DNA from: Nitrososphaerota archaeon
GTDB taxonomy: Archaea; Thermoproteota; Nitrososphaeria_A; Caldarchaeales; Calditenuaceae
NCBI GenBank assembly: GCA_041641295.1
Contig: JBEPYO010000001.1
Location: 791,909 to 823,908 of the forward strand
Direction: 5' to 3'
Length of the DNA: 32,000 nt
Shown: positions 168 through 27,595 of the stretch, piece by piece
Numbering within the stretch: the stretch's first letter is position 1
How the letters are laid out: the number at the start of each line of letters is the position of its first letter
Made by a program: the position numbers and the translations under genes
The notes under the pieces: model-generated
The model's database searches: none
What the model saw: the letters and a program-made list of their open reading frames with translations, nothing else
What the model was told of the DNA's origin: nothing

Positions 168-1538
168 ATGTCGACCGACAGAAAAAGAGCAGCCATACTC
201 GCAGCCATCATCATACTAGGCTTCGCCATACGATACATGGTATGGATATACCCCATGTACGCTACCCAAGGAATAATAATCTATGACACAGGAACCTACA
301 CAGTCTTCGGCCTCGCATACATCGAGGCCCTCACATCGATGAACCTAACAGCCCTAGCCGGGATAAACGTAGGAGTCCCACCCCTCGCCATGCTCCTAAC
401 AGGCCTAACCACACAAGCCTTCGGACAATACATCGGCCCGATCCAGGCAAGCCTAGTCGCACCGATGACAGCGTCAGCCCTAACGGCCATACCCGCCTAC
501 ATGATCGCAAGAAAAATCTCTCCCAAACTCTCCCTCATACCCCCCGCACTAGTAGCCTTCGACCCATTCCTCATACAATTCTCCGCATCCTACCTAGACT
601 CCATCGGCACACTCTTCGCCCTCACCTCAACCGCCTACACCCTAAACACAGGCGACAGAAAATCAACAATCCTAGCAATACTATTCGCATCCCTAGCCGT
701 CCTAACCAAACTATCATTCGCAATATTCATAACAATCTACGCCATCCTCCGCATCATATTCAAGCAGACAAGCATTAGGAGCGGAGTCTCCTATATCCTA
801 ATCCCATCAGCCTCACTGGCCCTTAGCCCTTGGCTCTGGATGCCCAGCGGCCTACAGACAAGCGTTACAGGCCACTTGCAGTTCAATAACCTCCCCCTCT
901 CACCGTTCATCGGCCCCTTCGTAATAGGCCTCCCCCAATCCCTCCCATGGTACATCCTAGCATACCTAGGCATGGGCCAAGTCGCTTGGAACACACTTCC
1001 CCCAATAGCACCGCTAGTCCTACTAGCTATCATAATGTACACAACAATGAAAAACAAGCCATACATCACTGGCCACCCAGCAGCGATGGCGGCCTCAGCC
1101 ATGATGCTTACAATCTTCCTATTGCCGAGGAACTACTGGACCTATAGCTGGGGCGGAGGCGCGATACAGGGCGTCCTAATACGCCAGTTCTACCCCTACT
1201 ACTTCTACCCCCTAATCCCCTTCCTAGCCACACTAATACCACCGGCCAATAGAAGCGAAAGCATCAACAGCCGCCTAGTAACCTACCCAATCCTCCTCAC
1301 CACACTCCTCTCCCCTCTAACATTCACGATGAACCTCGGCCTACCCTACTGGGACTTCCTCTTCACACTAATCTACAGCTCATCCCAAGGCAGCTGGGTA
1401 GCCGAGGGGATAATAGCCATAACAATAACCGTGGCAATTCTCATAGCCTCTGTCACAGCGGCAGAGCTCCTTCACAGGAAAGGCAAAGCCAATGGCCAAT
1501 CCGGGGGGCGAGGTGCCGAGCTAATAGTTAATCAGTAG
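168..1538 (+). CDS. Polytopic integral membrane protein, possibly a GT-C-fold (PMT_2/ArnT-like) glycosyltransferase
   Basis: A 456-aa ORF with no competing long ORF on the opposite strand. It has more than 10 hydrophobic segments and a basic N-terminus (MSTDRKRAAILAAIIILGF). An Asp-containing first loop (IIIYDTGTYTVFG) resembles the GT-C catalytic loop position. The functional call rests on architecture only. No WWDYG (AglB) motif was seen. Confidence 0.6.
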   Translation: MSTDRKRAAILAAIIILGFAIRYMVWIYPMYATQGIIIYDTGTYTVFGLAYIEALTSMNLTALAGINVGVPPLAMLLTGLTTQAFGQYIGPIQASLVAPMTASALTAIPAYMIARKISPKLSLIPPALVAFDPFLIQFSASYLDSIGTLFALTSTAYTLNTGDRKSTILAILFASLAVLTKLSFAIFITIYAILRIIFKQTSIRSGVSYILIPSASLALSPWLWMPSGLQTSVTGHLQFNNLPLSPFIGPFVIGLPQSLPWYILAYLGMGQVAWNTLPPIAPLVLLAIIMYTTMKNKPYITGHPAAMAASAMMLTIFLLPRNYWTYSWGGGAIQGVLIRQFYPYYFYPLIPFLATLIPPANRSESINSRLVTYPILLTTLLSPLTFTMNLGLPYWDFLFTLIYSSSQGSWVAEGIIAITITVAILIASVTAAELLHRKGKANGQSGGRGAELIVNQ

Positions 1539-1580
1539 AAAAACACTAATAAGCCACCATAGCACTAATAGCCACTCTTA

Positions 1581-1596
1581 TTTAAAAGATATATAC
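1581..1596 (+). promoter_or_regulatory. TATA-box-like promoter of pilin-like cassette copy 1
   Basis: TTTAAAAGATATATAC is centred about 28-35 nt upstream of the TTG at 1620. This is consistent with a leaderless or near-leaderless transcript. Confidence 0.45.
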
Positions 1597-1619
1597 ACGC
1601 TAGTCTAACTGTTAATCAA

Positions 1620-2147
1620 TTGGAGAGGGACTTGACCGCCCACCCAAACCCCAGTTACCGGAGGGGGCATAGAAGGATGCGCGGAGACACAGTAATCCTG
1701 GCCGAGATCCTCCTCTTCGCCGGTGTCGTAACTGTAGGCCTAGCCCTCTGGGGACTCTCCCTTGGCTACGTAACCTCCCAGTCAACAAAGCTGGCCCAAG
1801 ACTATGACAAACTCGTCTCACAGCAGAGGAGCTTCTTCATCATCGAGGCAGCCTCACTCCAAAGCAACGCCGTCTGGGTATCGAACCACGGCCTAAACGA
1901 TGTAGCAGTTATAAGCTGCACAATATACCCGAAGACCACTCCCTCACCCGGAATAAGACACAACGTGGCCGGCGTGATCGTAAGAGCATCAGACAACACT
2001 CCCACCGTTCTGACAGGCTGCGAGCGCTTCCCCGGCCCACCTCCATACGTGGTCGAGGTCTGGTACATCCCGGCACACCTCTACAACCCGCAAGACCCGG
2101 CCAGCAACTCGATGTACGCACTTGTGGCCCGATATGAGAAGGGGTAG
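1620..2147 (+). CDS. Class III signal peptide (type IV pilin-like) protein, family A, copy 1
   Basis: The N-terminus has a basic leader followed by RG|DTVILAEILLFAGVVTVGLALWG. This matches the archaeal prepilin pattern [KR][GA]|x plus about 20 hydrophobic residues. The leader is homologous to that of copy 2, which supports a start upstream of the internal ATG at 1677 (TTG at 1620 or 1632). The stop overlaps the next gene by 14 nt. Confidence 0.8.
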   Translation: MERDLTAHPNPSYRRGHRRMRGDTVILAEILLFAGVVTVGLALWGLSLGYVTSQSTKLAQDYDKLVSQQRSFFIIEAASLQSNAVWVSNHGLNDVAVISCTIYPKTTPSPGIRHNVAGVIVRASDNTPTVLTGCERFPGPPPYVVEVWYIPAHLYNPQDPASNSMYALVARYEKG

Positions 2148-3324
2148 CTCCGGAATCTCCACAATGGTTGGGATGGCGATAATCTTAGCGATATTCTTCA
2201 CAACCCTAATCCCGCTCTACGTCTACATGTCAAGCCTCTACGGCCTACTATCCAACGAGACGAACTCTAGAAGGATTAGGGACGTGGACAGGGAGACGGA
2301 GGACCTGAAGCTCTTCGTTGAGGGAAGGTCTGGTATAGGTCAGGGAAGCCCTAGCATAAGCGTGGTTCTGAAAAATACCTCACCTCTACTGATAAGGGTT
2401 GAGAGGATTTGGATGATGAATGTGGCGGCCGGCTCACCAGTCGGCGACACCCCCTGTGTAAACACGATAGTCGACGTACCCCCAGGCTGGAACATCACAG
2501 TTCAGGTTAACGATTGTACGCGAGGGTTCACTGGAAGGGTTCAGTTTATAGCTGTTACCGGGAGGGGAAGACTGTTCAGCTCCGCACCAATCGACCTCTT
2601 TCAAGGGAGAATAATTGCAGGCCTCTTCCCCTACACCTTGACAGTCTCAGTCATCAACATGAAGAGGGGAAACGAATACACCATCGACATCCAGCCACAA
2701 GGAGACGCAGACATACATCCACGCTCCATAACATATAAGGCAACAGCATCAAACGAGAACATCTCACTCTCCTTCGGAACAACAGCCGGAACCTTCCGAG
2801 TCTACCTCAAGGAGAACGGGGTTCTAGTCTCGACCGCTAGGCTCATAGCCCCACCCACCAACCCAGTGGACGTAACGCTGCCAGACTATTGGAACGTAGT
2901 CTTCATCCTCAGAAGAGTCGAGATACTGCCCGTGACCATAGATCTAGAAATATTCGCTCCCAGCCGGGTCCTTGAGGGAGAATCGTTCCAGTTCCAGATC
3001 TTCCTCAGCCTACCCCCACAGGCCGGAGAGGACGTCAGAATCAACCACGACAGGATAATCCAAGCCATAAGTTTAAGTGGAGACTATGAGCAAAACACGC
3101 TTAAGTGTTTGCCAGTAGAGGATACACTATCCCCCGGGTCAACGAAGACCGCGCTCATCTGCTCCCTTACAGCGGCAGAGCTTACAGGAAACAGAAACTT
3201 CGGCTCAATAACCATTACTGTAGGGCCGATCCAAGACTGCGGAACAGGTGAGGGCTCCGGCCTACCATACTCCTCAGACCAGGATTCCACCATCATAGAT
3301 GTGAAGAGGCAGAGGGGCCGATAA
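2134..3324 (+). CDS. Class III signal peptide (pilin-like) protein, family B, copy 1
   Basis: MRRGSSG|ISTMVGMAIILAIFFTTLIPLYVY. The ATG at 2134 was chosen because it aligns with the ATG of copy 2 at 4093. The ORF track's TTG at 2122 is an alternative start. Several N-x-S/T sequons are present (NET, NTS, NIT, NIS). Confidence 0.8.
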   Translation: MRRGSSGISTMVGMAIILAIFFTTLIPLYVYMSSLYGLLSNETNSRRIRDVDRETEDLKLFVEGRSGIGQGSPSISVVLKNTSPLLIRVERIWMMNVAAGSPVGDTPCVNTIVDVPPGWNITVQVNDCTRGFTGRVQFIAVTGRGRLFSSAPIDLFQGRIIAGLFPYTLTVSVINMKRGNEYTIDIQPQGDADIHPRSITYKATASNENISLSFGTTAGTFRVYLKENGVLVSTARLIAPPTNPVDVTLPDYWNVVFILRRVEILPVTIDLEIFAPSRVLEGESFQFQIFLSLPPQAGEDVRINHDRIIQAISLSGDYEQNTLKCLPVEDTLSPGSTKTALICSLTAAELTGNRNFGSITITVGPIQDCGTGEGSGLPYSSDQDSTIIDVKRQRGR

Positions 3325-3325
3325 G

Positions 3326-3396
3326 CTACGGTGTCGACGCTCTATATGATGTCCTTACATTAGCACCTTCACATAACACTACACTATTCTCCATAA
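3326..3396 (-). pseudogene. Remnant of the 3' end of a 5285..6571-like gene (direct orientation relative to the intact copy)
   Basis: The reverse complement of 3326-3370 reads EGANVRTSYRASTP*. The intact gene ends EGANVRTSCRAPTP*. Further upstream the homology decays and contains a stop. Confidence 0.75.
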
Positions 3397-3475
3397 GGGG
3401 TTTGGGATGAGGGTGATCAGAAGTGGCAGTATGGGGGATACATTGTCTACCAAAGTATTAAATGCCCAAGGCCTT
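3397..3475 (+). pseudogene. Inverted remnant of the 5285..6571-like gene (segment encoding DEGDQKWQYGGYIVY...)
   Basis: 3397-3475 is nearly identical to the reverse complement of 5412-5493 apart from a 5-nt deletion (TCTAC). It is therefore sense on the + strand, opposite to the adjacent remnant at 3326-3396. Confidence 0.8.
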
Positions 3476-3540
3476 GGTGAAAGTGTTAATCAGTTGAAGA
3501 CATGCTATAATATCTTTCACCCTCAACAATGTTTACGCGC

Positions 3541-3558
3541 TATATGATACATATATAT
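3541..3558 (+). promoter_or_regulatory. TATA-box-like promoter of pilin-like cassette copy 2
   Basis: TATATGATACATATATAT lies about 40 nt upstream of the TTG at 3594. It sits in the segment that is absent from copy 1. Confidence 0.4.
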
Positions 3559-3593
3559 GGTTGGTGTTGGAGTGCAATACAGCTGCATAGGTT

Positions 3594-4106
3594 TTGACCT
3601 ATCATCTAACCTCCAGTGCCAAGAGGCATAAGAGCAGGCGAGGCGACTCAATAGTCTTGGGGGAGCTTCTCCTATTCGCGGGCATGGTTGCTATAGGGTT
3701 GGCCCTCTGGGGGTTCTCCCTAAGCTACGTTGCCATCCAGTCTACGAAGCTAACCGAGGACCAAGATAAGATCATCTCACAGCAAAGGAGTTTCCTCGTC
3801 ATCGAGGCTGTCTCACTGCAGAGCAATAGAGTCTGGGTATCAAATCATGGGCTTAACGACGTAGCGGTCATAAGCTGCACGATATACCCGAAGGCTAGCC
3901 CTTCGCCCGGAATAAGACACAACGTGAGAGGCGTAATCGTAAGAGCATCAGACAACAGGTCCACAGCCCTGACAGGCTGCGAGCCTTTCCCCGGTCAGCC
4001 GCCTTACATAGTTGAGGTCTGGTATGTCCCTGCACACCTCTACAACACGCAAGACTTAACCCGCAACTCAATGCACGCGACGGTGGCTCGATATGAGAAA
4101 GGATAG
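3594..4106 (+). CDS. Class III signal peptide (pilin-like) protein, family A, copy 2
   Basis: ...KSRRG|DSIVLGELLLFAGMVAIGLALWG. There is no ATG in the leader, so a TTG start is inferred. By my manual alignment it is roughly three-quarters identical to copy 1. The block VWVSNHGLNDVAVISCTIYPK is invariant. Confidence 0.8.
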   Translation: MTYHLTSSAKRHKSRRGDSIVLGELLLFAGMVAIGLALWGFSLSYVAIQSTKLTEDQDKIISQQRSFLVIEAVSLQSNRVWVSNHGLNDVAVISCTIYPKASPSPGIRHNVRGVIVRASDNRSTALTGCEPFPGQPPYIVEVWYVPAHLYNTQDLTRNSMHATVARYEKG

Positions 4107-5283
4107 GTCAGGAGTCTCAACTATGGTTGGTATGGCGATAATCTTAGCGATATTCTTCACAACCCTGATTCCCCTCTACGTCTACATGTCAAGCCTCTAC
4201 GGGCTTCTCTCCAGCGAAATGAATTACAGGAGGATTAGGGACGTGGACAGGGAGACGGAGGACTTGAAGCTCTTAGTGGAGGGAAAGTCGGGGATAAACC
4301 AAGGAGACTACGGAGTGAGCGTGGTTCTGAAGAACACCTCGCCCCTGCTGATAAGGGTTGAGAGGATTTGGATGATGAACGTGGTGACTGGCTCACCCGT
4401 GGGAGATACCCCTTGCATAGACAGGATAGTTGACGTGCCTCCAGGCTGGAACGTCACAGTAAATGTGGACGTCTGTACGCAGGGGTTCACTGGAAGGGTT
4501 CAGTTTATAGCGATTACTGAGAGAGGCAGGCTATTCGGCTCGCAGCCAGTGAACCTTCTTCAAGGAAGAATTATGCCGGGGATATTCCCCTACACTCTGA
4601 CTGTCTCAATCATCAATATGCGGAGAGGGAGCGACTATACAATCGAGGTAGTTCCACTCGGGGACGCAGATATACATCCACGCTCCGTAACATACAAGGC
4701 TACGGCCTCTAACGAGAACATCTCACTCTCCTTCGGAGCAACGGCAGGAACCTTCTCGGTCTACCTCAAAGAGAACGGGGCCCTAGTCCGGACAGCCAGA
4801 CTCGTAGCCCCACCAAACAACCCAGCTAATGTAACGCTGCCGGACTACTGGAATGTGGTCTTCATACTTAGAGGTAACACGATACGGCCCGTGACCATGG
4901 GCCTAGAAATAAGTGCTCCCCGCCGTGTTCTTGCGGGGGTATCATTCTCGTTCGATATTGTTCTCAGCCTACCGTCACAGGCCGACGAAGACGTTAGAAT
5001 CAACTATGATGGGATAATCCAAGCCATGGTTATAAGAGGAGACTACGAGCCAAATACACTTGATTGTTCGAAGGTGAAAGATACTCTCTCCCCAGGCTCG
5101 ACGGAGACCGTGGCTAGGTGCTACATAATAGCCGCTGAGCCTCCACAGAACAGAACCGCCGGCTCAATAACGATCACTGTAAACCAGATCCAAAACTGTG
5201 GAACTGGAGTAAGCTCCAACCTACCATACCCGTCAAACTCTGACTCCGTCAACATACAGGTGAGGGGGCAGAGAGGGAGATGA
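4093..5283 (+). CDS. Class III signal peptide (pilin-like) protein, family B, copy 2
   Basis: MRKDRSG|VSTMVGMAIILAIFFTTLIPLYVY. It shows the same 14-nt overlap with the upstream gene as in copy 1. It is collinear with 2134..3324 over its full length. Confidence 0.85.
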   Translation: MRKDRSGVSTMVGMAIILAIFFTTLIPLYVYMSSLYGLLSSEMNYRRIRDVDRETEDLKLLVEGKSGINQGDYGVSVVLKNTSPLLIRVERIWMMNVVTGSPVGDTPCIDRIVDVPPGWNVTVNVDVCTQGFTGRVQFIAITERGRLFGSQPVNLLQGRIMPGIFPYTLTVSIINMRRGSDYTIEVVPLGDADIHPRSVTYKATASNENISLSFGATAGTFSVYLKENGALVRTARLVAPPNNPANVTLPDYWNVVFILRGNTIRPVTMGLEISAPRRVLAGVSFSFDIVLSLPSQADEDVRINYDGIIQAMVIRGDYEPNTLDCSKVKDTLSPGSTETVARCYIIAAEPPQNRTAGSITITVNQIQNCGTGVSSNLPYPSNSDSVNIQVRGQRGR

Positions 5284-5284
5284 A

Positions 5285-6571
5285 TTATGGTGTCGGCGCC
5301 CTACATGATGTTCTTACATTAGCACCCTCATACCACCACTTACAGACATAAACTACACCTTGGGCTTCAGGGGATAAGAGGTCCTCCTCCTGATAGTTAT
5401 TCCCAGTGACTAGGCCTTGGGCATTTAATACTTTGGTAGAGTAGACAATGTATCCCCCATACTGCCACTTCTGATCACCCTCATCCCTAACCCTTAAGGT
5501 GAATAGGCCGATGTAGGAGTCGCCCGGTGAGAGCCTATTCAAAGAGGTACTGAGTATGGTGGTGGTCAGTGTTACGTTGTCGTAGGCTATGACCTCCAGC
5601 TGGACGTTAATGTTTCTCAGCGGCTCTGTATTATTACCTAGGCTCACTATGAATGGTATCGTGGCGTTTAGCTCGATGTCGCTCTCGCCTAGGAGTACCA
5701 TTAGGTTTGGCTGGAGGGGGCTTATCTGGAGTGGTATGGGTGTAGGAATGACGAGTCGGGGGAGCGGGCCTATCTGCACAACCACATGACCGTTCGCCTC
5801 AACCCTAACCGGGCTTGGGCTAATGTTTGCACAGCTGCTCCCATCATACGAGCACTGTAGGGCCCTGACAATGTATACGCCTGGGACTATGTTGAATGCG
5901 AAGACGTCAGACATATCCTCTACGCTCGAGATGAATCGCGTGGCATATGCGGAGCCCTTACAGCCCTCCGCAAACTCTTCCTCCCTCAACGAGACACAGC
6001 CACGAATCATGTTCACGCTTTCTCCACGCTCCACCGCGACCTCGACCCTGTACCTGTATCCTAGGCTGACGTTGCTGAGCTGGACTACCAAGAGGTAGGG
6101 TAGGGCGTTTGGACCGATTGGCTCGCCGGATACGAAGCTGTTGCCCCTGAGTGTAGGGGCTCTCACCACGACCTTTTCATTGGGCTCGACAAAAAAGTTT
6201 AGAGACTTCACGACCACGGCGCCCGGTGGCATCTTAAACTCTGTGCCTTCGATTTTCTGTAGACCGATTCTGCTGCTCTCCACATAGAGGGTTGGAACAC
6301 TAATCTCTACAGGCCCCTTATTCATCATTATGATGAATAGGCTTCTTTTACCGAAGGGGTTTATCTCCGGTGGCTGTAGGGTTGCGATGACTTCTAGCTT
6401 CTCGTTTAGCTTCTCGACCTCGAATTGGAGCCTCCTCGATACCTCGTCCATGAATATTGTCTGTATCTGCTGTATGTAGAGCCACATGGGGATCATGACT
6501 GTGAAAAATATCATAACGGCAATCGCGGTACCGACGACGGCCGAGACACCTGAGCGCCTCCTACTCCTCAC
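5285..6571 (-). CDS. Class III signal peptide (pilin-like) protein, family B-related (C)
   Basis: MRSRRRSG|VSAVVGTAIAVMIFFTVMIPMWLY. The N-terminal region is organised like family B, with a helix, then a charged coiled segment, then a NKGP/NTSP beta-domain. It is the last gene of the minus-strand operon. Its stop is 1 nt from the stop of the convergent gene 4093..5283. Confidence 0.85.
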   Translation of the reverse strand: MRSRRRSGVSAVVGTAIAVMIFFTVMIPMWLYIQQIQTIFMDEVSRRLQFEVEKLNEKLEVIATLQPPEINPFGKRSLFIIMMNKGPVEISVPTLYVESSRIGLQKIEGTEFKMPPGAVVVKSLNFFVEPNEKVVVRAPTLRGNSFVSGEPIGPNALPYLLVVQLSNVSLGYRYRVEVAVERGESVNMIRGCVSLREEEFAEGCKGSAYATRFISSVEDMSDVFAFNIVPGVYIVRALQCSYDGSSCANISPSPVRVEANGHVVVQIGPLPRLVIPTPIPLQISPLQPNLMVLLGESDIELNATIPFIVSLGNNTEPLRNINVQLEVIAYDNVTLTTTILSTSLNRLSPGDSYIGLFTLRVRDEGDQKWQYGGYIVYSTKVLNAQGLVTGNNYQEEDLLSPEAQGVVYVCKWWYEGANVRTSCRAPTP

Positions 6572-6578
6572 CCTTCCA

Positions 6579-7109
6579 TCACCCCGCTATGTTGGTTCTG
6601 GTGGTTGTGGTGGTGATTGTTACGGTGTAGGTGCTTGTGGAGGTTGTTGTCGTGGTTGTGGACATGGTACGTGTGAGGGGGGCGGAGGTGGTGGTGTAGG
6701 TAGTTGTTGTAGTCGTGGTCGGCGCTGTAACAGTTGTCGTCATATAGACTGTTCTCGTGGTCGCCGTAGTGGTCACGGTATATCTTGTAACCCATGCTGT
6801 TGCAGTGGTTGTTGAAGTACCTGAAGTGATGGTAGAGGTTATCCTAGTTGTCGTTGTTCGCGTTAAAGTTCCACTGGTGAGGGTTGTAGTAGTTATACGG
6901 ATTATCGTACTTGTGGTGGTAGTGGTCCCCTCTCTTTCTGTGGTGGTTGTTAATGCGGTAACCCAGGTGGTCGTGGTGGTGGTTGTGGTTGTTGTGGTGG
7001 TGACTACTCTTAAGGTCTGCGCCAGACCCGTTAGGCTGAGCCCAAGTATTGTCAGAATCGCCAGAGTAATTGTGAGTGCGCGGAGTCTCCTCACCCTATC
7101 CTCGACCAA
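6579..7109 (-). CDS. Secreted or pilin-like protein that is about half threonine (T)
   Basis: The N-terminus MVEDRVRRLRA|LTITLAILTILGLSLTGLA fits a class III or Sec-type signal. About 140 aa follow, dominated by Thr; I counted about 87 Thr in 176 aa by hand. It is packed in the operon with a 19-nt overlap upstream and a 7-nt gap downstream. The reading frame was chosen because the neighbouring gene uses the same Thr frame. The other frames give Gly/Cys, Val or His/Asn low-complexity products. Confidence 0.6.
   Translation of the reverse strand: MVEDRVRRLRALTITLAILTILGLSLTGLAQTLRVVTTTTTTTTTTTTWVTALTTTTEREGTTTTTSTIIRITTTTLTSGTLTRTTTTRITSTITSGTSTTTATAWVTRYTVTTTATTRTVYMTTTVTAPTTTTTTTYTTTSAPLTRTMSTTTTTTSTSTYTVTITTTTTRTNIAG
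6590..7004 (-). repeat. Low-complexity ACN (Thr codon) tract 1
   Basis: The + strand reads as GGT/TGT/AGT-rich. The minus strand gives runs of ACC/ACA/ACT, including a run of about a dozen consecutive Thr codons. Confidence 0.85.
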
Positions 7110-8830
7110 ACACCCCTCAGCCTCCTACCCACGGGATACAGTAATAATGGCCCTAGGGATAGATAAAGCAAAACCTGCCAGACAAATGGCCAATCACTCG
7201 GAGAAGCCGAAGAGACTGGCAAAGACACCCCTTGGCCACTAGACGCCCCTCCAGTCGCAGTAGTGGTGGTGGTCGTGGTAGTCGTGGTGGTTACTGTCAC
7301 AACGACCGTGTTTGTGAATGTCCGCGTGAGTGTGATTGTTGTGGTATAGCGTGTCGTGGTGGATGTGGTTGTCTGGGTGATGGTGGGGCTGTAAACCGTT
7401 ACCGTGGCCCACACCGTGCTCGTAGTTACTGATGTGATTGTGGCGGTAAATGACGTCGTGGTACGGGTGATTATCCTTGTTGTGGTTGTACTCCGCACGG
7501 TCGTGTAGGATATGAGGGTTCTTGTGGATGTGGTGGTTGTGGATGGCGTAGTTACTGTAATGGTTCTGGTGGTGGTCGTGGTGGTCCTGCTAGTTGTGCC
7601 CGGTATCTTGGTGGTTATGGTTGAGGTGGTTGTCTGAGTCTCGGTAACTGTCTTGGTCACGGTGGTGGTCGTGGTTGTTACCGGAGTTACGTCAGTCGTC
7701 CTCACGACTATCCATCCTATGTCGAAGACGTTTACAGGCCTGTCGAGAACAATGCTGTACTGGTCAATGTAGAGGGCGAGGCTCCCAAGCTCGACCGAGG
7801 TCCTCAATACACCCCTCGAGATAAGTACCCCATTACAGTCATAGATCTCTACTGCCAGCTCGTAGTTTCCATCCTCCCAGAACCCCACTGAAAGTATAAC
7901 CTCGTCAATCCGCATCCTCTCCAAGTCTATCCGCATCTTCGAATAGTCTACATAGTTGCCGAAACTGTTAGGATACCCCCAAGACGGGGGAACAATCGTG
8001 AAATCTGGCATAAGGGACTGGAACGTGAATGTAAGCGGCGGCTCCAAGCCGCCCCTGTCAAGCTGAACATAGACCTCCTGCGGAAGGGCACCCGAAACAC
8101 TAGCAGTGCCTTGCGCCTCCACACCATTCCTATCCCGGACAACTACGCGAAAGTCGTATGAGGAGCGCGGAGCGCTCGCATTGAGAAGCCTGACCTTGAC
8201 GAAGTCTGTCGACTGGCCGTAGATGTTATCCTCCTTCGGGTCTATCAGCTCTATCAGGAGCCAGTTCTCGGTCGGCAACACACATCCGCTGGCCAGCCCG
8301 TAATTCGGCCGAGAAGCCTCAAACGTCGCGACCTTGAATAATAGTACCTCGTTGTCGGGTTTCGAGAGGCCTGGGTTTGAGGGGTCGTAGAGCTGCTCCG
8401 GAATATAGTGTACCTGAACAAGCAGCCTGTCATTCTCGCTACAAGTCCCAGTGGGACAGCGGAAAACCAGCTGGCCTGCCTCACCTACATTGAGGCGCGC
8501 CAGATCGTCTATTCCAGTGTCATAGACCACTGTGCCGTTTTTAATTGTTAGTATCCGAAAGATAATTATAGGCTCCCTCCCAGTGTTTCTAAGCAGCATT
8601 ATTCCCCTATCAGCGTAGCCATAGATCATGTCTGGGTAGTAGACATAATCCGCACCTATGTTCGAGCGCAGCACTAGGGCCTGGTCACCCACCTTTCTAA
8701 CCTCCTCCTGCCTCCACAGGCCCGCGTAGCTTGAGATTAAGGCCCACAAAGCTATTCCAGCAGCGAGAACTACCCCTAACACAAGCACTGTGGCGAGGAT
8801 ATCACTATACCCCCGCCCACCCCGCCCCAC
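7091..8830 (-). CDS. Large class III signal peptide protein with Thr-rich stalk and C-terminal membrane anchor (D)
   Basis: MGRGGRG|YSDILATVLVLGVVLAAGIALWALI. The globular region is paralogous to 8835..9977. Residues about 378-525 are Thr-rich. The C-terminus is WPFVWQVLLYLSLGPLLLYPVG followed by RRLRGVWSRIG, that is, a hydrophobic helix plus a basic tail. Confidence 0.85.
   Translation of the reverse strand: MGRGGRGYSDILATVLVLGVVLAAGIALWALISSYAGLWRQEEVRKVGDQALVLRSNIGADYVYYPDMIYGYADRGIMLLRNTGREPIIIFRILTIKNGTVVYDTGIDDLARLNVGEAGQLVFRCPTGTCSENDRLLVQVHYIPEQLYDPSNPGLSKPDNEVLLFKVATFEASRPNYGLASGCVLPTENWLLIELIDPKEDNIYGQSTDFVKVRLLNASAPRSSYDFRVVVRDRNGVEAQGTASVSGALPQEVYVQLDRGGLEPPLTFTFQSLMPDFTIVPPSWGYPNSFGNYVDYSKMRIDLERMRIDEVILSVGFWEDGNYELAVEIYDCNGVLISRGVLRTSVELGSLALYIDQYSIVLDRPVNVFDIGWIVVRTTDVTPVTTTTTTVTKTVTETQTTTSTITTKIPGTTSRTTTTTTRTITVTTPSTTTTSTRTLISYTTVRSTTTTRIITRTTTSFTATITSVTTSTVWATVTVYSPTITQTTTSTTTRYTTTITLTRTFTNTVVVTVTTTTTTTTTTTATGGASSGQGVSLPVSSASPSDWPFVWQVLLYLSLGPLLLYPVGRRLRGVWSRIG
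7256..7699 (-). repeat. Low-complexity ACN (Thr codon) tract 2 (within gene D)
   Basis: It has the same codon composition as tract 1. It ends in a run of more than 10 Thr before ATGGASSGQG. Confidence 0.85.
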
Positions 8831-8834
8831 CTAC

Positions 8835-9977
8835 CTACACCTCCTCAACCCCTATCACTACTCTGTATATGTCGGTGAGAGGGGTCGAGGGGATATCTAT
8901 AAACACGGAGTCCGTGAATATCCCACGAGGTATGCGTACAGTAACTGACCTAGAGACGAGCTGGACTCCATTACAGTCGTATAATGTCACCGTCACTCTA
9001 TAGTTGCCGCCTACGACGTCGTTAACTCCCAGCTCCACCTCTACTACATTAACATTCATATTAGCGTCTGACCAGAGCGTGACGCCGGATGCATGTGCCT
9101 TTCCAGGTATTCCGCCGAAAACCCATTCCTCCTGTACAACGTCATATCCCGCCGAGAGGACCCGTACTGTTAAGGGTACTTGAAGTCCAGAGAAGCTGCC
9201 AGCGAAGGGCTGTAGCACATTACTTATAGTCTGGACATCACTTGTTGCGAAGCCATATTCACCCATCGCGTCAATCACTTGCAGGTCGACGGTAGTAGAG
9301 TCGCTTGCGGAGGCGTATGGGAATCGCACATATACCTTGTTATTGGGTGGGGGTGGGATCTTCCCCGAGTCGGTATAGGTGACCGGGTCTACGACATCAA
9401 CCATCATCCAATTAGATGGCAGTGGGCAACGTGCAGGCGCCCCGACTGGCGGATGGACGAAGACTGTCTCAACATACCGCATCTCATCCACTGAGAGGAT
9501 TGGGTTCTCCTCGTTGAATAGGCCTGCGGCGACATACCATACCCGCAGCCTTAAGGTCTCTAGTGATGTGCAGGAGCTACACGCGGGGACGGAGCTTCTG
9601 TCAAGTTCTATGGCTTGCTGCGGCTGAAGCTCGGCTATTCTCGTGAACCCGTTTGAGGGGAATGAAGCCTTCAAAGACCCTGAAGGTGACACGATCTCTA
9701 TCCTCGTAACAACGACGGGTACATCGGCGATATTCCTTACAGTAACATTCCTCACATCGCCTGTATAGAATACCCTCTCAAAGGATAGTTGTGCGGAGGT
9801 CTTAACAAGTAGTATAGCCCTGTTGGCCTCGTTAGTCGATGACTGAAGCGATACACCCAACCACCCCGAGGCTACAGCTAGTATGAATACTCCGACGCCG
9901 ACGGTGAGGGCTGTCAGTAATATAGCTCCGATTACGGTATCGCCCCTCCTTCTACGGCTCGCCCTACCGTCGGTCAA
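8835..9977 (-). CDS. Class III signal peptide (pilin-like) protein (E), paralogue of D
   Basis: The start is TTG. The N-terminus reads ...RRRRG|DTVIGAILLTALTVGVGVFILAV. It shares CPLPSNWMMVDVVDP / CVLPTENWLLIELIDP and NYRVTVTLYDCNGVQL / NYELAVEIYDCNGVLI with gene D. It is the first gene of the minus-strand operon. Confidence 0.85.
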   Translation of the reverse strand: MTDGRASRRRRGDTVIGAILLTALTVGVGVFILAVASGWLGVSLQSSTNEANRAILLVKTSAQLSFERVFYTGDVRNVTVRNIADVPVVVTRIEIVSPSGSLKASFPSNGFTRIAELQPQQAIELDRSSVPACSSCTSLETLRLRVWYVAAGLFNEENPILSVDEMRYVETVFVHPPVGAPARCPLPSNWMMVDVVDPVTYTDSGKIPPPPNNKVYVRFPYASASDSTTVDLQVIDAMGEYGFATSDVQTISNVLQPFAGSFSGLQVPLTVRVLSAGYDVVQEEWVFGGIPGKAHASGVTLWSDANMNVNVVEVELGVNDVVGGNYRVTVTLYDCNGVQLVSRSVTVRIPRGIFTDSVFIDIPSTPLTDIYRVVIGVEEV

Positions 9978-10008
9978 GCAACTACTATCCCCCCTATTCC
10001 CGGATGGG

Positions 10009-10017
10009 TTATATAGG
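10009..10017 (-). promoter_or_regulatory. TATA-box-like element for the minus-strand pilin-like operon
   Basis: TTATATAGG (CCTATATAA on the minus strand) is centred about 36 nt upstream of the TTG start at 9977. Confidence 0.4.
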
Positions 10018-10138
10018 CGTTTTTAGTAAGTCCCAGTCGGGCAGTTTGTGACTTGATAATCAGATTTACCGACTTGCTAAACATGGTTGAAAAGTTTTGG
10101 TTTTTTATAGTGATTGGCCACAAGGTTTTAGAGGATTG

Positions 10139-10149
10139 TTAATATATCC
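10139..10149 (+). promoter_or_regulatory. TATA-box-like element for 10173..11828
   Basis: TTAATATATCC is centred about 29 nt upstream of the ATG at 10173, which suggests a leaderless transcript. Confidence 0.45.
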
Positions 10150-10172
10150 CCCCGATGAACTAACTTTCTTAG

Positions 10173-11828
10173 ATGGATAGAATGCGTCGCTTAGCACTCC
10201 TAAGACTACTTGTCATTCCCATCGTAATGGTAGTTGCACTGTCGTTTGTTTCGTGGTTCATTGGTGGAGAACCATTAAGCGTATTGATTAGCAGAGCCTT
10301 AGCCCTTGAAGAGGTTGTCGGAGGCTATGTAGCGCATGTTCTCACGGGCCTGCTTATTGGGGCGATAAATGCCCTTGTTCTGCATAGAGTTATCCGGGTT
10401 TGGATCGCTTACTTTGTTGGTGCTATTGTCGGCTGGGCTTTAGCCCTAACATTAGTTATGATGACCACACCTCTGGCTCCACCCTTCATTCTACAGTGGG
10501 TTGCAGGCCTCGGAGCGTTCATCGCCACACTCGCTGGGCTTGTGTGGTTTCTATCTGGTGGTATTGTAAAGTTTCCAATAGGGCAGGCACAAGTGAGTAG
10601 ACAGTCTGTCCAGCTGCCTCAACCATCACAAACACCTACTACGCCTGTAACGGAAAAACAGGAGCCCCCGCCTCAGCCATCTAAGGAGTCAACACCAGCT
10701 CCTCCACCCATCACCGAAGCAACACCCCTGCCAACTCCGAAGGCTGAGCCAACACCCCCTCCACCCACTACACAACCTCCTCCTCAGACAGCACAGACAG
10801 CCCCACCCCCACCAGCACAACCAGCCACTCCACCACCTCCATCCGAGCCCGCACGGAGCATCGAAGAGATTGAGGAAGCAATGGTAGAGATTATCGCTGA
10901 AGAGGGAATCACGGAGATTATTCCACTCCCTAACAACACCTCACCGGAAGGCGGCTCCTACCCTGACCTAGAGTCGCTACTAAATATAGACACAACAATG
11001 CTTCTCCGGGCCATAAGAAGGCTCATCGACAAGAATATGGTCAGGATAGCGGGGGTGGAGTTTAAGAAGGTTGCATGCCCCCACTGCCAGAGCGCCCTCA
11101 ACATCTTGACTCTGAGTTGTAGGGCATGCGGGTCGACGAATATTGGGAGGCAGAGAATACTACAACATGAGACCTGCGGGTATCTTGGTCCTGAGGACAG
11201 CTTCACTGTTGGAGGCCGGGCGTTATGTCCGCGCTGCGGTAGCAGTGTCAAAATATTGAGGAGCCCGCTCGAGGAGGAGCATGAGCAGGTGCTCAAGGTA
11301 CACTCAAGCTTCTTCATCTGCTACGACTGCAACGAAGTCAGCCCCGACCCACACATCTCCTTCAGATGCCTCACATGCGGACTAGACTATGACCTGACCA
11401 GCTTCGAGTTCAAGACATTCTATAGATACGCCGTCAACCCCGACGTGATAAGCGGGCTACAAGAGCAGAAGCGCCCGCTCAAACTTATCGCGGACGAGCT
11501 CAGAAAGCAGGGATACGAGGTTCAGCTCGGAGCTAGGATTTCAGGCACCTCCAAGGTCAAGCATAAGGTTGACCTAATTTACAGTCGTCTGGGACAGCCC
11601 AAGGGAGCTGTCTTTCTATTCACTGAAAGGGGAGGAGCAAAGATCCATGACGTGATGAAGATAATAGTCATGAAGGCTGACACCAAGATAGACAACATCA
11701 AGATACTCTGCCTCGGGCAGCTTGACAACGATTCGAAGAGACTTGCCGAACTCTACAACATATCAATAATTGAGAACATAGCGGCGAAAGACCTGGGAAG
11801 CGAGGTTATACCGCGCCTAGTTTCCTGA
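10173..11828 (+). CDS. Membrane-anchored protein with Pro-rich linker, three CxxC zinc-ribbon pairs and a C-terminal alpha/beta domain
   Basis: About 4 N-terminal TM helices are followed by roughly 100 aa of P/T/Q-rich linker. Then come CPHC..CRAC, CG..CPRC and CYDC..CLTC. The C-terminal segment is GTSKVKHKVDLIY...FLFTERGG. It possibly belongs to the TackOD1-type zinc-ribbon output-domain class; this is from memory and unverified. Confidence 0.75.
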   Translation: MDRMRRLALLRLLVIPIVMVVALSFVSWFIGGEPLSVLISRALALEEVVGGYVAHVLTGLLIGAINALVLHRVIRVWIAYFVGAIVGWALALTLVMMTTPLAPPFILQWVAGLGAFIATLAGLVWFLSGGIVKFPIGQAQVSRQSVQLPQPSQTPTTPVTEKQEPPPQPSKESTPAPPPITEATPLPTPKAEPTPPPPTTQPPPQTAQTAPPPPAQPATPPPPSEPARSIEEIEEAMVEIIAEEGITEIIPLPNNTSPEGGSYPDLESLLNIDTTMLLRAIRRLIDKNMVRIAGVEFKKVACPHCQSALNILTLSCRACGSTNIGRQRILQHETCGYLGPEDSFTVGGRALCPRCGSSVKILRSPLEEEHEQVLKVHSSFFICYDCNEVSPDPHISFRCLTCGLDYDLTSFEFKTFYRYAVNPDVISGLQEQKRPLKLIADELRKQGYEVQLGARISGTSKVKHKVDLIYSRLGQPKGAVFLFTERGGAKIHDVMKIIVMKADTKIDNIKILCLGQLDNDSKRLAELYNISIIENIAAKDLGSEVIPRLVS

Positions 11829-14976: not shown

Positions 14977-15109
14977 TAGGCAAGTCTTTGATACCCACGC
15001 CTCTTCTAAGATCTCACCACATAATGGGGACAATTCCTATGACACCCTAGACACTAGCGTCTCCCGCATCCTTGACAGGAAAACAGTAGTGCATTGTCTG
15101 GTAAAAATG

Positions 15110-15202
15110 TGCTCCGGCCGGGATTTGAACCCGGGTCTCCGGCTCTCTCCGCATCTCTGGCCCGAAAGGCCGGCATACTTGTCCGGGCTATACTACCGGA
15201 GC
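15110..15202 (-). tRNA. tRNA-Glu (anticodon UUC) with an intron of about 18 nt after position 37
   Basis: The minus strand reads GCTCCGG TA GTAT..GTAT G CCGGC CTTTCG[intron GGCCAGAGATGCGGAGAG]A GCCGG AGAC CCGGG TTCAAAT CCCGG CCGGAGC A. The acceptor, D, anticodon and T stems all pair. It closely resembles the archaeal tRNA-Glu consensus. Confidence 0.9.
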
Positions 15203-16954: not shown

Positions 16955-17185
16955 CTAAACCCCCATTCAAGAATCTAATAACTGGGCGTGTCCATCTAAC
17001 CGTTAATAGAAAGTAAATACTCGGATTACTACTGCATATATACAGACATGCCCGATCTGTAGAAGGGAGGTTTAAAGTCCAGAGGAATCAGAAGATAGGA
17101 GGCGGTTCCGCAATAATTAAGAAAGAAAAAGGTAAGCTGGCTGAGGGCCACACCGGTCAGGACAGCATCTAAGAACCCCCATGAG

Positions 17186-17262
17186 AGGCCGGCATGTTAA
17201 AGTCTTTGTCATGTATGGTAGCTCTCCACCATACATGTTAAAACATGTATCATACCGGCCTA
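17186..17262. other. Long imperfect inverted repeat (hairpin) spanning the stop codon of 17250..18179
   Basis: The inner perfect stem is CATGTATGGT (17210-17219) paired with ACCATACATG (17228-17237), with an 8-nt loop. The outer stem is AGGCCGG (17186-17192) paired with CCGGCCT (17256-17262). Confidence 0.7.
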
Positions 17263-18179
17263 AGGGTTTTTCCCTGCTGTCCTAGGCCAGCATGATCCTC
17301 AGCCTCTAGCGGGGTTCTCGTCAGCACCGTTTCTCTGATTCTCTTAATAACCTGAACTTGGTCCTTTGCCTTGATCGTGCTCGTGCCCTTTAAGGCTATG
17401 GTCAGTCTTTGCAGGGCCTGCCGCGGTAGCCTATAGTATATTTTCAGCCTCCCCTTAGCTGGTTTGAAGAGCCCTACATAGTTGTTTATTTTTTCGATGC
17501 CGCGGTTGAAGTCGACGTAGGTCAGAAGTTCTGCTAGAGCCTCTCTCGCTAGCAGATGGTTCTCACCAGCGATCTCTAGAGCCTCAACAACTTTATTATA
17601 GGTTGGTATTCGTCTACCAGCCTCCTCGACTATCCTGGCAGCCATAGCCGCCATTTGCCTCTCCGTGCACCTTATGGCCTCCCTCAGGATTTCCCTCTCG
17701 ACACCCTTGTTCAAAGCCCTCATCCCATTCAACAAGCTTTGATGGTTTCTCAGCAGTACTTGGAATGCGCTGATTAGCCTCCGCATCTCGAGGAAGTCCT
17801 CATCAATCTCCCTGAACCATTTCTTCTCTACCCTCATTAAGGCTCTGAGGTCATTCCTAGCAGTCTTAGATAGTCTAAGCTCCTCTCTTTTCTGCCTCAA
17901 CATCGTAAGCCTTCTAAGGTGGTAGACTCGTACGCCCCTTCTCAGCACCTCAACGAACTCGTCTGTGAGTTCTATTGGTATGACATCAACGTAGAGCTCA
18001 TCACCGGCCTCCGCTGGAATATCGGCGATCTTAGAAGCCTTGCCGAAGGCCTCACCGTCAACAATGTATACATGATAGTTCTCCTCAGTCTTATTCTTAC
18101 GCCTTTTATTGGCCAGTCTGTGAACATCGACGTAGAACCTTCTAACAGCTCTTCCGGGAATCTGCATTATTTCCATCAT
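17250..18179 (-). CDS. Hypothetical protein with IS110-family (DEDD transposase + Transposase_20)-like layout, possibly degenerate
   Basis: YVDV..., IPIELTDEF and SKTARNDLRALM resemble the GIDV / EATG / KTDxxDA motifs. ALEIAGENHLLAREALAELLTYVDFNRGIEKINNYVGLFKP resembles LxxIPGIGxxxAxxLxAEIGDxxRFxxxxxLxxYxGLxP. The first D of KTD and the downstream SG serine appear to be missing. The assignment is made by eye from remembered family consensus only. Confidence 0.45.
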   Translation of the reverse strand: MMEIMQIPGRAVRRFYVDVHRLANKRRKNKTEENYHVYIVDGEAFGKASKIADIPAEAGDELYVDVIPIELTDEFVEVLRRGVRVYHLRRLTMLRQKREELRLSKTARNDLRALMRVEKKWFREIDEDFLEMRRLISAFQVLLRNHQSLLNGMRALNKGVEREILREAIRCTERQMAAMAARIVEEAGRRIPTYNKVVEALEIAGENHLLAREALAELLTYVDFNRGIEKINNYVGLFKPAKGRLKIYYRLPRQALQRLTIALKGTSTIKAKDQVQVIKRIRETVLTRTPLEAEDHAGLGQQGKTLRPV

Positions 18180-18364
18180 CTATTCATCTCCCCCGCTATC
18201 AACATAGTAACACACCATGTTGTCAGGAAGTAGTCGAGAAAAGTCTGGTCAAGGGTTAGCTGTATGCCAGCCCAAGCCATACTAGCAGCAGAGTGGGAAT
18301 TGAGGTTATATAGTCTTTTAGACCCCTCAGTGAAAGTAACAACTCCTGTTTCTAGCTTTCGCAA
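18176..18364 (-). CDS. Possible small ORF translationally coupled (ATGA overlap) to 17250..18179
   Basis: A 62-aa ORF with a TTG start. Its stop overlaps the downstream ATG as ATGA. No recognisable motifs were found, so it could be spurious. Confidence 0.25.
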   Translation of the reverse strand: MRKLETGVVTFTEGSKRLYNLNSHSAASMAWAGIQLTLDQTFLDYFLTTWCVTMLIAGEMNR

Positions 18365-18895
18365 TCTTTCTAGACTTCACCATGGCCTTGAGCAGTTAGT
18401 AGTATAAGGGTGATGTCTTAGGTAGAGAGGATACTATCGTTGATAAGGAGTCCAGTATTACAGATGAGAGTGATGTTAAGGGTGTGAGGACGATTAAGAG
18501 GGGCTTGAGGGTGTTTAAGAGGCCCCAGAGCTGAGATATGAGATAACAGCCGAGTAACAGCCAGCATTAAGACGCTCAAACAGTTGTTTAATCGGGACTG
18601 TGATAAGGTTGAGGTGATTATATCCCTAACCGTCTATCGATAAGGCCGGGCATGATGACGGGTTCATAAAAGCATCCATACAGGATACAACGAATACGGG
18701 GACATACTGTATATGCTTATAAAGACTTTATCAGACAAGGTGACTGCAAGGGTAGGCTGTGTAAGCGTCATAGAGCCCAGAAGCCGTATGAGTGGCTCAT
18801 AGAAACAGCGGCTTATTCAGAGATAGGGGAGATGGGTCATATTTTGGCGCCCAGACTACATGATAACAGCTGGTAAGAGCCTTAAATAAAACAAG

Positions 18896-18912
18896 TTTTT
18901 CTTCTGTATTTT
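18896..18912 (+). terminator. Oligo-T tract (TTTTTCTTCTGTATTTT)
   Basis: T5 and T4 runs lie at the end of a roughly 530-nt ORF-free stretch. They could terminate a + strand transcript. Confidence 0.25.
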
Positions 18913-19010
18913 GTCCTTATCTCCCAGTTATTCTCGGCCAGCACCTCCGAGAAGAATTCTCCGCATAACACCTCACCTCTGTCTGTTAGGACGCCCATAG
19001 GAAATTAAAG

Positions 19011-27056: not shown

Positions 27057-27595
27057 GCCGAGGCCACAGGCTAGCTAGGTCGCTCATACCCGTCATCCTC
27101 GCTGTGGGGCTCGCGCTTCTAGGCTACTTCCTCTTGGGAGCAGTGCTGGGGACCGATACACCCTTAGTCGTCGTCCCGACCGGTAGCATGCGTCCCACAA
27201 TAGAGGTGGGAGACATTCTCCTGATTCAGGGTGTGAAGCCTGAGGAGATAGTGGCTGACCCGATACGCGGCGATGTGATAGTCTTCTGGCAGCCGGGGGG
27301 CAGTGTGAGGATAGTCCACAGGGCTATAGGGAAGACGGAATTCGGCGTGATAACGAAGGGTGATGCCAACGCTTATCCCGACTTCTTCTCACCAGTCCCC
27401 TACAGCCTAATCGTGGGAAAGTGGACCGGCTTCAAGATACCGGCTTGGACAGGAGTGGGCTACCTAGCCCTCATTCTCAGGGGCGAACTCTACCCACCAC
27501 TCGGCCAGATAATCTGGATCACAATAATCCTCGTCAACATACTCCTAATAGCTAGGGAGGTATTCTCCTCTCCAAAGAGTAGAGCCTCTCCCTGA
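27014..27595 (+). CDS. Signal peptidase I, archaeal/ER type (S26B, Sec11-like)
   Basis: An N-terminal TM anchor is followed by VVPTGSMRPTIEVGDILLIQG (catalytic Ser box) and RIVHRAIG (His box). It overlaps the upstream surface protein gene by 43 nt. Confidence 0.8.
   Translation: MGSEEPGTVEKERLGRGHRLARSLIPVILAVGLALLGYFLLGAVLGTDTPLVVVPTGSMRPTIEVGDILLIQGVKPEEIVADPIRGDVIVFWQPGGSVRIVHRAIGKTEFGVITKGDANAYPDFFSPVPYSLIVGKWTGFKIPAWTGVGYLALILRGELYPPLGQIIWITIILVNILLIAREVFSSPKSRASP

Follow-up and report, generated by a model that had tools for sequence, protein, structure and literature searches.

Introduction

Archaeal type IV filament (TFF) loci that hold several pilins together with large accessory proteins rich in immunoglobulin-like (Ig) folds are well documented, and their pilin genes frequently lie away from, or in trans to, those for the assembly ATPase and the TadC platform. 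Here we describe a cluster of eight consecutive genes, termed A to H, within a 32,000-nt stretch of DNA (hereafter the window; GenBank assembly GCA_041641295.1, contig JBEPYO010000001.1, forward-strand positions 791,909 to 823,908) from a metagenome-assembled genome (MAG) of a Caldarchaeales (Aigarchaeota) archaeon of hot-spring origin. Genes A-B and C-D lie on the forward strand and H-G-F-E on the opposite strand. We consider it likely that the eight genes make up the portion of a single type IV pilus (T4P) locus that encodes pilins and accessory proteins, with H, G and E as minor pilins and A-B as variable modules. The encoded protein set is an undescribed, lineage-specific form of a known type IV pilus system, and not a new kind of machine.

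The closest described systems are the clade-4 T4P loci of Thaumarchaeota and Aigarchaeota (Makarova, Koonin & Albers 2016), represented by the C. subterraneum arrangement FlaI - arCOG06883 zinc-ribbon protein - TadC - PilA, and the pilus system of Calditenuis aerorheumensis, a three-gene system that is very highly transcribed in situ (Beam et al. 2016). The locus described here resembles these in possessing a FlaI-family ATPase, a TadC-family platform, a small PilA/Ups-like pilin and a TackOD1/arCOG06883 protein. A further likeness to the clade-4 loci would be that the prepilin peptidase is encoded elsewhere; it is a stand-alone gene in C. subterraneum. In contrast to the clade-4 loci, the genes H-G-F-E and A-B are without arCOG, Pfam or NCBIfam assignment, and they are not among the T4P components of C. 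subterraneum in the excerpted Table S4.

Subsystems 4B and 4G of the Thermoproteales TFFs and the Ups system (UpsX) likewise comprise multi-pilin loci with large Ig-fold accessory proteins encoded beside the ATPase and platform genes. They differ from the present locus in that here the Ig-rich proteins themselves bear pilin-type N-termini, one protein (G) combines a Thr-rich stalk with a C-terminal anchor, and a separate secreted protein (F) is also Thr-rich; no sequence relationship to those arCOGs was detected, albeit no search was aimed at it. The Sulfolobales pilins UpsA and UpsB and the Pyrobaculum calidifontis pilin 8fk7 share with the proteins described here an N-terminal helix followed by an Ig-like beta-sandwich, with weak direct and stronger transitive matches. 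However, the direct scores fall far under the equivalog cut-offs (19 versus 70 bits; 15 versus 130 bits), and the present proteins exceed those pilins 2-4-fold in size and have additional domains. Finally, the bacterial minor-pilin/PilY1 tip or priming complexes (FimU-PilVWXE, GspHIJK) offer a functional analogy only: several non-identical pilin-like proteins, some of them bulky, are encoded together and away from the major pilin. There is no homology past the pilin N-terminus, and a priming or tip role for the proteins described here would rest on that analogy. Literature searches found no paper describing this cassette, and neither Caldarchaeales nor the cassette is mentioned in the text of the 2016 census or in the 2026 classification preprint. 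Named database members of the set are all labelled 'hypothetical'.

Results

Organization of the cluster and paralogy of its genes

An open reading frame (ORF) scan of the window revealed eight consecutive ORFs spanning positions 1620-9977. They are as follows (↓, predicted cleavage site):

A, 1677-2147, forward strand: 156 aa from the ATG at 1677 (the start used in the public annotation; the ORF opens at a TTG at 1620); small class 1 pilin-like protein, signal MRG↓DTVIL
B, 2134-3324, forward strand: 396 aa from the likely ATG at 2134 (the ORF opens at 2122); large class 2 pilin-like protein, signal RRGSSG↓ISTMVG
C, 3594-4106, forward strand: paralogue of A (72%), signal RRG↓DSIVL
D, 4093-5283, forward strand: paralogue of B (74%), signal RSG↓VSTMVG
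E, 5285-6571, reverse strand: 428 aa, core class 2 pilin-like protein, signal RRSG↓VSAVVG
F, 6579-7109, reverse strand: 176 aa, 49% Thr, Sec-type signal ...GLA↓QT, no membrane anchor
G, 7091-8830, reverse strand: 579 aa, core class 1 pilin-like protein, signal RG↓YSDIL
H, 8835-9977, reverse strand: 380 aa, core class 1 pilin-like protein, signal RRRG↓DTVIG

The scan reproduced every junction peptide quoted in the initial annotation of this stretch, and the coordinates bear out its account of the layout. A/B (with B read from the ATG at 2134) and C/D each overlap by 14 nt and G/F by 19 nt, H/G and F/E are separated by gaps of 4 and 7 nt, respectively, and the two arms are convergent, with stops at 5283 and 5285. 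The reported protein sizes of 170-579 aa, above those of typical major pilins, were likewise reproduced. Every protein carries a hydrophobic segment at its N-terminus; G alone carries another, at residues 549-567.

Comparisons using BLASTP and sequence alignment placed seven of the proteins in two paralogue classes. Class 1 consists of A, C, G and H: A and C are 72% identical, G and H are 25% identical over 350 aa (E-value 1e-13), and A and C match the N-terminal ~160 aa of H with E-values of 4e-6 and 6e-5, respectively. The motifs RN..vPv, C..C and VWY[IV]PA.L[FY].P are common to this class, and A aligns to the pilin domain of both G and H, including the VWY[IV]PA.LY.P motif. Class 2 consists of B, D and E: B and D are 74% identical, and both match the first ~190 aa of E at 26-28% identity (E-values 1e-12 to 1e-14). 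No relationship between class 2 and the H family was detected by hhalign, and F resembles none of the other seven proteins. The A-B and C-D pairs are tandem duplicates, spaced 1959 nt apart and 76% identical at the DNA level. Since the genes fall into two paralogue classes, their clustering does not represent eight independent events.

Seven of the eight proteins carry pilin-type N-terminal signals

All eight proteins had been proposed to carry class III (prepilin-type) signals. This holds for A, B, C, D, E, G and H, each of which displays a basic leader, G or A at position -1 and ~20 hydrophobic residues, all kept across orthologues; F, on the other hand, carries a Sec-type signal. Position -1 is G or A without exception across orthologues of the seven, and the residues at +1/+2 are class-specific: GDT/GDS in A, C and H, G↓YS in G and G↓[IV]S in B, D and E. 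The invariant cleavage-type G/A together with the conserved +1 residues suggests pilin-like processing, as judged from sequence conservation. Using the strict FlaFind-type motif [KR][GA][ALIFQMVED][ILMVTAS], we obtained matches in this genome only for A, C and H, plus F by chance. The orthologues of H, G and E in L012, an Aigarchaeota MAG (related loci are referred to by L numbers), satisfy the strict motif through KG↓L, RG↓Q and RA↓I sites.

The cluster is linked to type IV filament machinery across lineages

No ATPase, platform or peptidase gene is present inside the 32-kb window, in agreement with the initial annotation, which went on to conclude that there was no machinery nearby. That extension did not survive examination of L018 (contig WUQR01000139.1; GCA_009889515.1), in which window position 1 corresponds to position 9834, with 4 mismatches in 11,538 nt. 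The following genes of L018 lie to the left (window coordinates):

ATPase, -6679 to -4811: 622 aa, T2SSE/FlaI-like (FlaI model, E-value 1e-109; BasE, 5e-72)
Platform, -4821 to -3046: 591 aa, T2SSF/TadC-like (E-values: UpsF, 6e-23; BasF, 1e-19; ArlJ, 1e-13)
Canonical small pilin, -2924 to -2523: 133 aa, passes the TIGR02537 cut-off
Glycosyltransferase family 2 (GT2) protein, Methyltransf_21 protein and small protein with four transmembrane segments, -2433 to 43 (L018 7400-9876)

The score of the ATPase against BasE is 243 bits, below the cut-off of 1000. The order of the whole locus is thus ATPase, platform, 133-aa pilin, GT2, Methyltransf_21, two membrane proteins, A-B, C-D, E-F-G-H (opposite strand) and TackOD1, with the ATPase and platform genes 3.0-6.7 kb past the left edge of the window. 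The ATPase, platform and pilin genes are found 2.5-6.7 kb to the left of the window; their apparent absence is a window-edge artefact, and 'no machinery nearby' is unsafe as a statement when the feature in question sits at the edge of a window.

Related genomes display the same association. Genes for T2SSE, T2SSF and the small pilin were found by tblastn in L001, L002, L004, L005 and L008, 3-7 kb past the orthologue of the membrane protein gene at window 168-1538. In three Caldarchaeum genomes (L014-L016) the order is H-G-F-E, small pilin, T2SSF, T2SSE and TackOD1, such that the H-G-F-E run abuts the machinery. In L012, T2SSE, a 196-aa gene and a Roadblock gene are followed by H-G-F-E on the same strand, with a T2SSF platform gene, a small GTPase gene and Roadblock genes upstream; the L012 H, G, F and E proteins are reciprocal-best matches at 33-36% identity. 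The gene order and orientation of our locus match those in Caldarchaeum, apart from an inserted block (GT2 through D) and a relocated TackOD1 gene, and E is syntenic in all relatives. In contrast, the copy number of A-B is 0, 1 or 2 among relatives: half of the related genomes lack the pair; Caldarchaeum and L012 are among these, yet they retain H-G-F-E and the canonical pilin. Homologues of A form just 14 clusters, all from Caldarchaeales.

Taken together, these findings demonstrate physical linkage, across lineages, between the cassette and the genes for a TFF ATPase, a platform and a canonical pilin. The earlier proposal that the set uses distant machinery or is a new type of machine is therefore contradicted by the presence of the ATPase, platform and pilin genes nearby in L018 and five related MAGs, and by their adjacency in Caldarchaeum and another Aigarchaeota MAG. 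The kinship with Desulfurococcales that had been assumed is likewise incorrect: relatives in the genome collection are Calditenuaceae, Caldarchaeum and Nitrososphaerota (former Aigarchaeota) MAGs, and the organism is a Caldarchaeales MAG.

Three further observations concern the related loci. L012 carries a gene for a Ras/Arf-like small GTPase and two Pfam-confirmed Roadblock/LC7 genes among its T2SSF, T2SSE and pilin-like genes, a combination reminiscent of MglA/MglB-type regulators; this GTPase/Roadblock set lies at 1435-2327 (reverse strand), 5961-6329 (forward strand) and 11355-11795 (reverse strand), the last being a possible third Roadblock gene that had no Pfam match. Directly upstream of H in L014 and L016 (3507-5966 and 6875-9334, respectively) is a gene for an 819-aa HAD-PIN-ATPase(-KH) protein with a weak T2SSE match, along with two small zinc-ribbon-like genes. 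In L013, a JGI metagenome contig, a homologue of E (40%) stands alone at 10001-11272 between heme-biosynthesis and QueT/COX3 genes, with no adjacent H, G or F.

Predicted folds and profile comparisons connect the proteins to pilins

As the initial annotation had supposed, the eight proteins belong to no named or curated pilin family by Pfam and NCBIfam scans. Sub-threshold matches were obtained for E against UpsB (E-value 1e-3, 19.1 bits, cut-off 70) and H against UpsA (E-value 0.017, 15.3 bits, cut-off 130), and that of B against DUF7289 was non-significant (E-value 0.23). We used AlphaFold (AF2) to model E and H on the basis of 19-25 homologues. The E model (predicted local distance difference test score, pLDDT, 86.7) consists of a helix at residues 7-55 followed by three beta-sandwich domains, and the H model (pLDDT 82) of a helix at residues 13-59, a pilin beta-sandwich and two more beta domains. 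A Foldseek search matched the N-terminal ~170 residues of H to the P. calidifontis type IV pilin 8fk7_A, with a target-normalised TM score of 0.73 and a root-mean-square deviation of 3.7 Å. The same structure was the sole PDB sequence match of the H-family profile, at a marginal E-value of 0.014. The other Foldseek matches of H were generic Ig tandems, and the full E model yielded generic Ig-tandem matches only (integrin legs, alpha-2-macroglobulin), which are uninformative as to function. By their paralogy to the modelled E and H proteins, A, B, C, D and G are likewise predicted to adopt the pilin fold.

Profile searches furnished an indirect connection to named pilins. An exhaustive class 1 profile search returned only 76 matches among 1.84 billion representative proteins; ~30 of these were H/G-like, and ~40 were small proteins (140-200 aa) with canonical archaeal pilin N-termini. 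Of the small proteins, 16 of 37 matched UpsA (best E-value 7e-11), 13 of 37 UpsB and 9 of 37 TIGR02537. Class 2 matched the small-pilin profile by hhalign with a probability of 92.6% (E-value 4.5e-7) over the leader, helix and first strands. Conservation of E declines from the helix (0.73) through D1 (0.56) to D2 (0.42) and D3 (0.41), which fits a buried core with exposed tips, while that of H is uniform along its length at about 0.57. None of the eight proteins matched the archaellin or ArlF/ArlG (FlaF/FlaG) models or substrate-binding-protein families, their ectodomains consisting of Ig-like tandems only, and neither the window nor L018 contains archaellum genes. The findings discussed above support type IV pilin character for all of the proteins but F.

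F is a Thr-rich protein with a predicted Sec-type signal and G bears a C-terminal anchor

The proposal that F is a class III protein failed, as the basic-G/A motif is absent from its distant orthologues. Instead, a [G/V/A]-L-A↓Q/E site ~25 residues in was kept, by inspection, in eight F orthologues, those of L012 and L014 differing. The conserved n-h-c pattern, with small residues at -3/-1, has the pattern of a Sec/signal peptidase I-type signal, which F is accordingly predicted to carry. F is found between G and E in L002, L003, L005-L009, L012 and L014, and its C-terminus is conserved (T[RK]T..A[GN]). Since position, signal and C-terminus are conserved, we conclude that F is a real gene. It is called by the JGI annotation; the NCBI record calls an antisense ORF in its place. 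The Val-rich antisense ORF over F/G (6757-7242, forward strand, 161 aa) was rejected as a gene because antisense ORFs move between genomes while F is conserved; it is a by-product of ACN-repeat coding. We also rejected a G-F fusion ORF in L004 (8149-9999, 616 aa), in which a run of N/X marks a scaffold gap in the Thr-rich repeats.

G consists, in order, of the signal, a pilin domain, two beta domains, a Thr-rich stretch of ~170 aa, a C-terminal transmembrane segment at residues 549-567 (YLSLGP) and a basic tail. The C-terminal segment is retained in the L012 and L014 orthologues. It is unusual for a pilin N-terminus to occur together with a Thr-rich stalk and a C-terminal anchor; the stalk-plus-anchor layout resembles that of archaeal surface glycoproteins. 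The Thr-rich stretch and C-terminal anchor therefore argue that G stays tethered near the membrane.

Flanking genes and the remainder of the window

Two genes flank the cluster inside the window:

TackOD1 protein, 10173-11828, forward strand, divergent from H: membrane protein with a Pro-rich linker and a multi-zinc-ribbon domain (Pfam TackOD1, E-value 2e-24)
Membrane protein, 168-1538, forward strand: 456 aa, multi-pass with several hydrophobic segments, family-less

The first of these, a T4P-associated gene inside the window, was missed by the initial annotation. TackOD1 corresponds to arCOG06883, which has been reported in thaumarchaeal T4P loci and lies between FlaI and TadC in C. subterraneum. 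The gene is syntenic in every related locus reaching that far, and its product is 33% identical over 536 aa to that of the L014 TackOD1 gene beside T2SSE.

Orthologues of the 456-aa membrane protein flank the cassette in L001-L008 and are absent from L012-L016, being confined to Calditenuaceae-type genomes. Together with the GT2 and Methyltransf_21 genes, the gene stands between the machinery and the pilin genes. Pfam and PDB sequence searches prompted by the idea of a GT-C glycosyltransferase gave no match for this protein, and the idea is speculation. The block as a whole (GT2, Methyltransf_21, the small protein with four transmembrane segments and the 456-aa protein) was found in Calditenuaceae-type genomes only and is absent from the fetched L012-L016 stretches. 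It is possible that the block represents a glycosylation module beside the Thr-rich F and G.

Elsewhere in the window, a 922-aa protein encoded at 24288-27056 (forward strand) has CarboxypepD_reg/Big/SpaA-like repeats, an N-terminal signal and a C-terminal transmembrane segment, making it a candidate S-layer or surface protein. The 3' end of its gene runs into the beginning of a gene for an S26 (Sec11-type) signal peptidase at 27014-27595 (forward strand). GC content falls to 0.45-0.48 at positions 17000-19000 (elsewhere ~0.52-0.58), around a 309-aa ORF at 17250-18179 (reverse strand) for which no family match was obtained. A tRNA-Glu(ttc) call at 15109-15202 (reverse strand) is 94 nt, long for a tRNA, and an intron is possible.

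Discussion

If, as we consider likely, the eight genes form the pilin and accessory part of one pilus locus, a prepilin peptidase encoded elsewhere would cleave the seven pilin-like proteins after the invariant G/A, and the ATPase and platform would build a filament in which the 133-aa pilin is most likely the bulk subunit. H, G and E, the set that every lineage retains, would be minor pilins, priming the filament and/or residing at its tip and displaying their Ig-like domains for adhesion. The A-B pairs may serve as exchangeable modules of an accessory pilin plus an adhesin. The Thr-rich F would be a partner protein that is exported by Sec and probably O-glycosylated, G may be tethered to the membrane via its Thr-rich stalk and C-terminal anchor, and the TackOD1 protein is a candidate regulatory or auxiliary component.

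Several points weigh against this proposal. B, D, E and G fail the strict FlaFind motif in this genome, carrying [KR]-x-G↓ or RG↓Y; the canonical pilin beside the platform gene (RRKAG↓ISPVV) likewise has [KR]-x-G↓, the form seen in B, D and E. For none of the eight proteins did a Pfam or NCBIfam model score above threshold, Pilin_N (PF07790), Class_III signal (PF04021) and TIGR02537 included. A prepilin peptidase was not located in this genome, and only C. subterraneum is documented to have one. The C-terminal transmembrane segment of G is hard to square with free entry into a long filament, and the density of N-glycosylation sequons, taken as an indicator of surface location, is only mildly raised in B, D and E and hence does not decide the matter. 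Finally, it is by analogy that major-pilin, minor-pilin, tip-complex and adhesin roles are assigned here.

The Thr-rich stretch and C-terminal anchor that G combines with its pilin N-terminus are also the main support for a different explanation, which we regard as credible, albeit unlikely: the proteins may be linked to the pilus without being filament subunits, forming a membrane-anchored pseudo-periplasmic scaffold, comparable to the ArlF/ArlG stator or the Sulfolobus bindosome, that either holds the pilus base or presents Ig-like domains. G would be anchored at both ends via its Thr-rich stalk, as are membrane-anchored surface glycoproteins. The large multi-Ig tandems of the ectodomains and the uniform conservation of H are consistent with such a scaffold, the filament subunit could be supplied by the separate, canonical small pilin, and class III signals on non-filament proteins have precedent. 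However, the invariant G/A and conserved +1 residues are suggestive of pilin-type processing, the ArlF/ArlG and substrate-binding-domain comparisons yielded no matches, and the distal domains of E are more variable.

Distinctly less probable is that H, G, E and F constitute an undescribed tethered pilin complex, in which G is leashed by its ~170-residue, probably O-glycosylated, Thr-rich stalk and anchor, F is a secreted mucin-like partner, and the 168-1538 protein, GT2 and the methyltransferase perform the glycosylation. We know of no identified enzymes of archaeal protein O-glycosylation; if true, this arrangement would provide a candidate handle on that process.

A and C are of major-pilin size with a complete pilin domain, and translational coupling pairs each of them with a large partner. 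According to Makarova et al., archaeal ATPase/TadC pairs work with several sets of pilins. A and C could accordingly be the major subunits of a second filament that shares the ATPase and platform and has B and D as dedicated adhesins of its own, giving two alternative pili; the absence of A-B from half of the related genomes, which nevertheless keep H-G-F-E and the canonical pilin, makes this improbable. That the genes are an orphan class III cluster forming a new pseudopilus or anchor independent of nearby machinery, as first suggested from a 32-kb window without ATPase, platform or peptidase genes and from the want of a curated family match, is extremely improbable given the machinery 3.0-6.7 kb outside the window in the same genome, its direct adjacency in other lineages and the TackOD1 gene flanking the cassette.

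Our preferred interpretation, that of a single pilus locus with H, G and E as minor pilins, gives context to ~3,000 residues of 'hypothetical' protein and flags the doubly anchored pilin G and its Thr-rich partner F as unusual. It adds an uncharacterised pilin-like set to the archaeal type IV filament catalogue, from a small lineage accounting for ~76 representative clusters among 1.84 billion proteins. The host belongs to the thermophilic Caldarchaeales, in which the genes of a related pilus system rank with the most highly transcribed of streamer communities.

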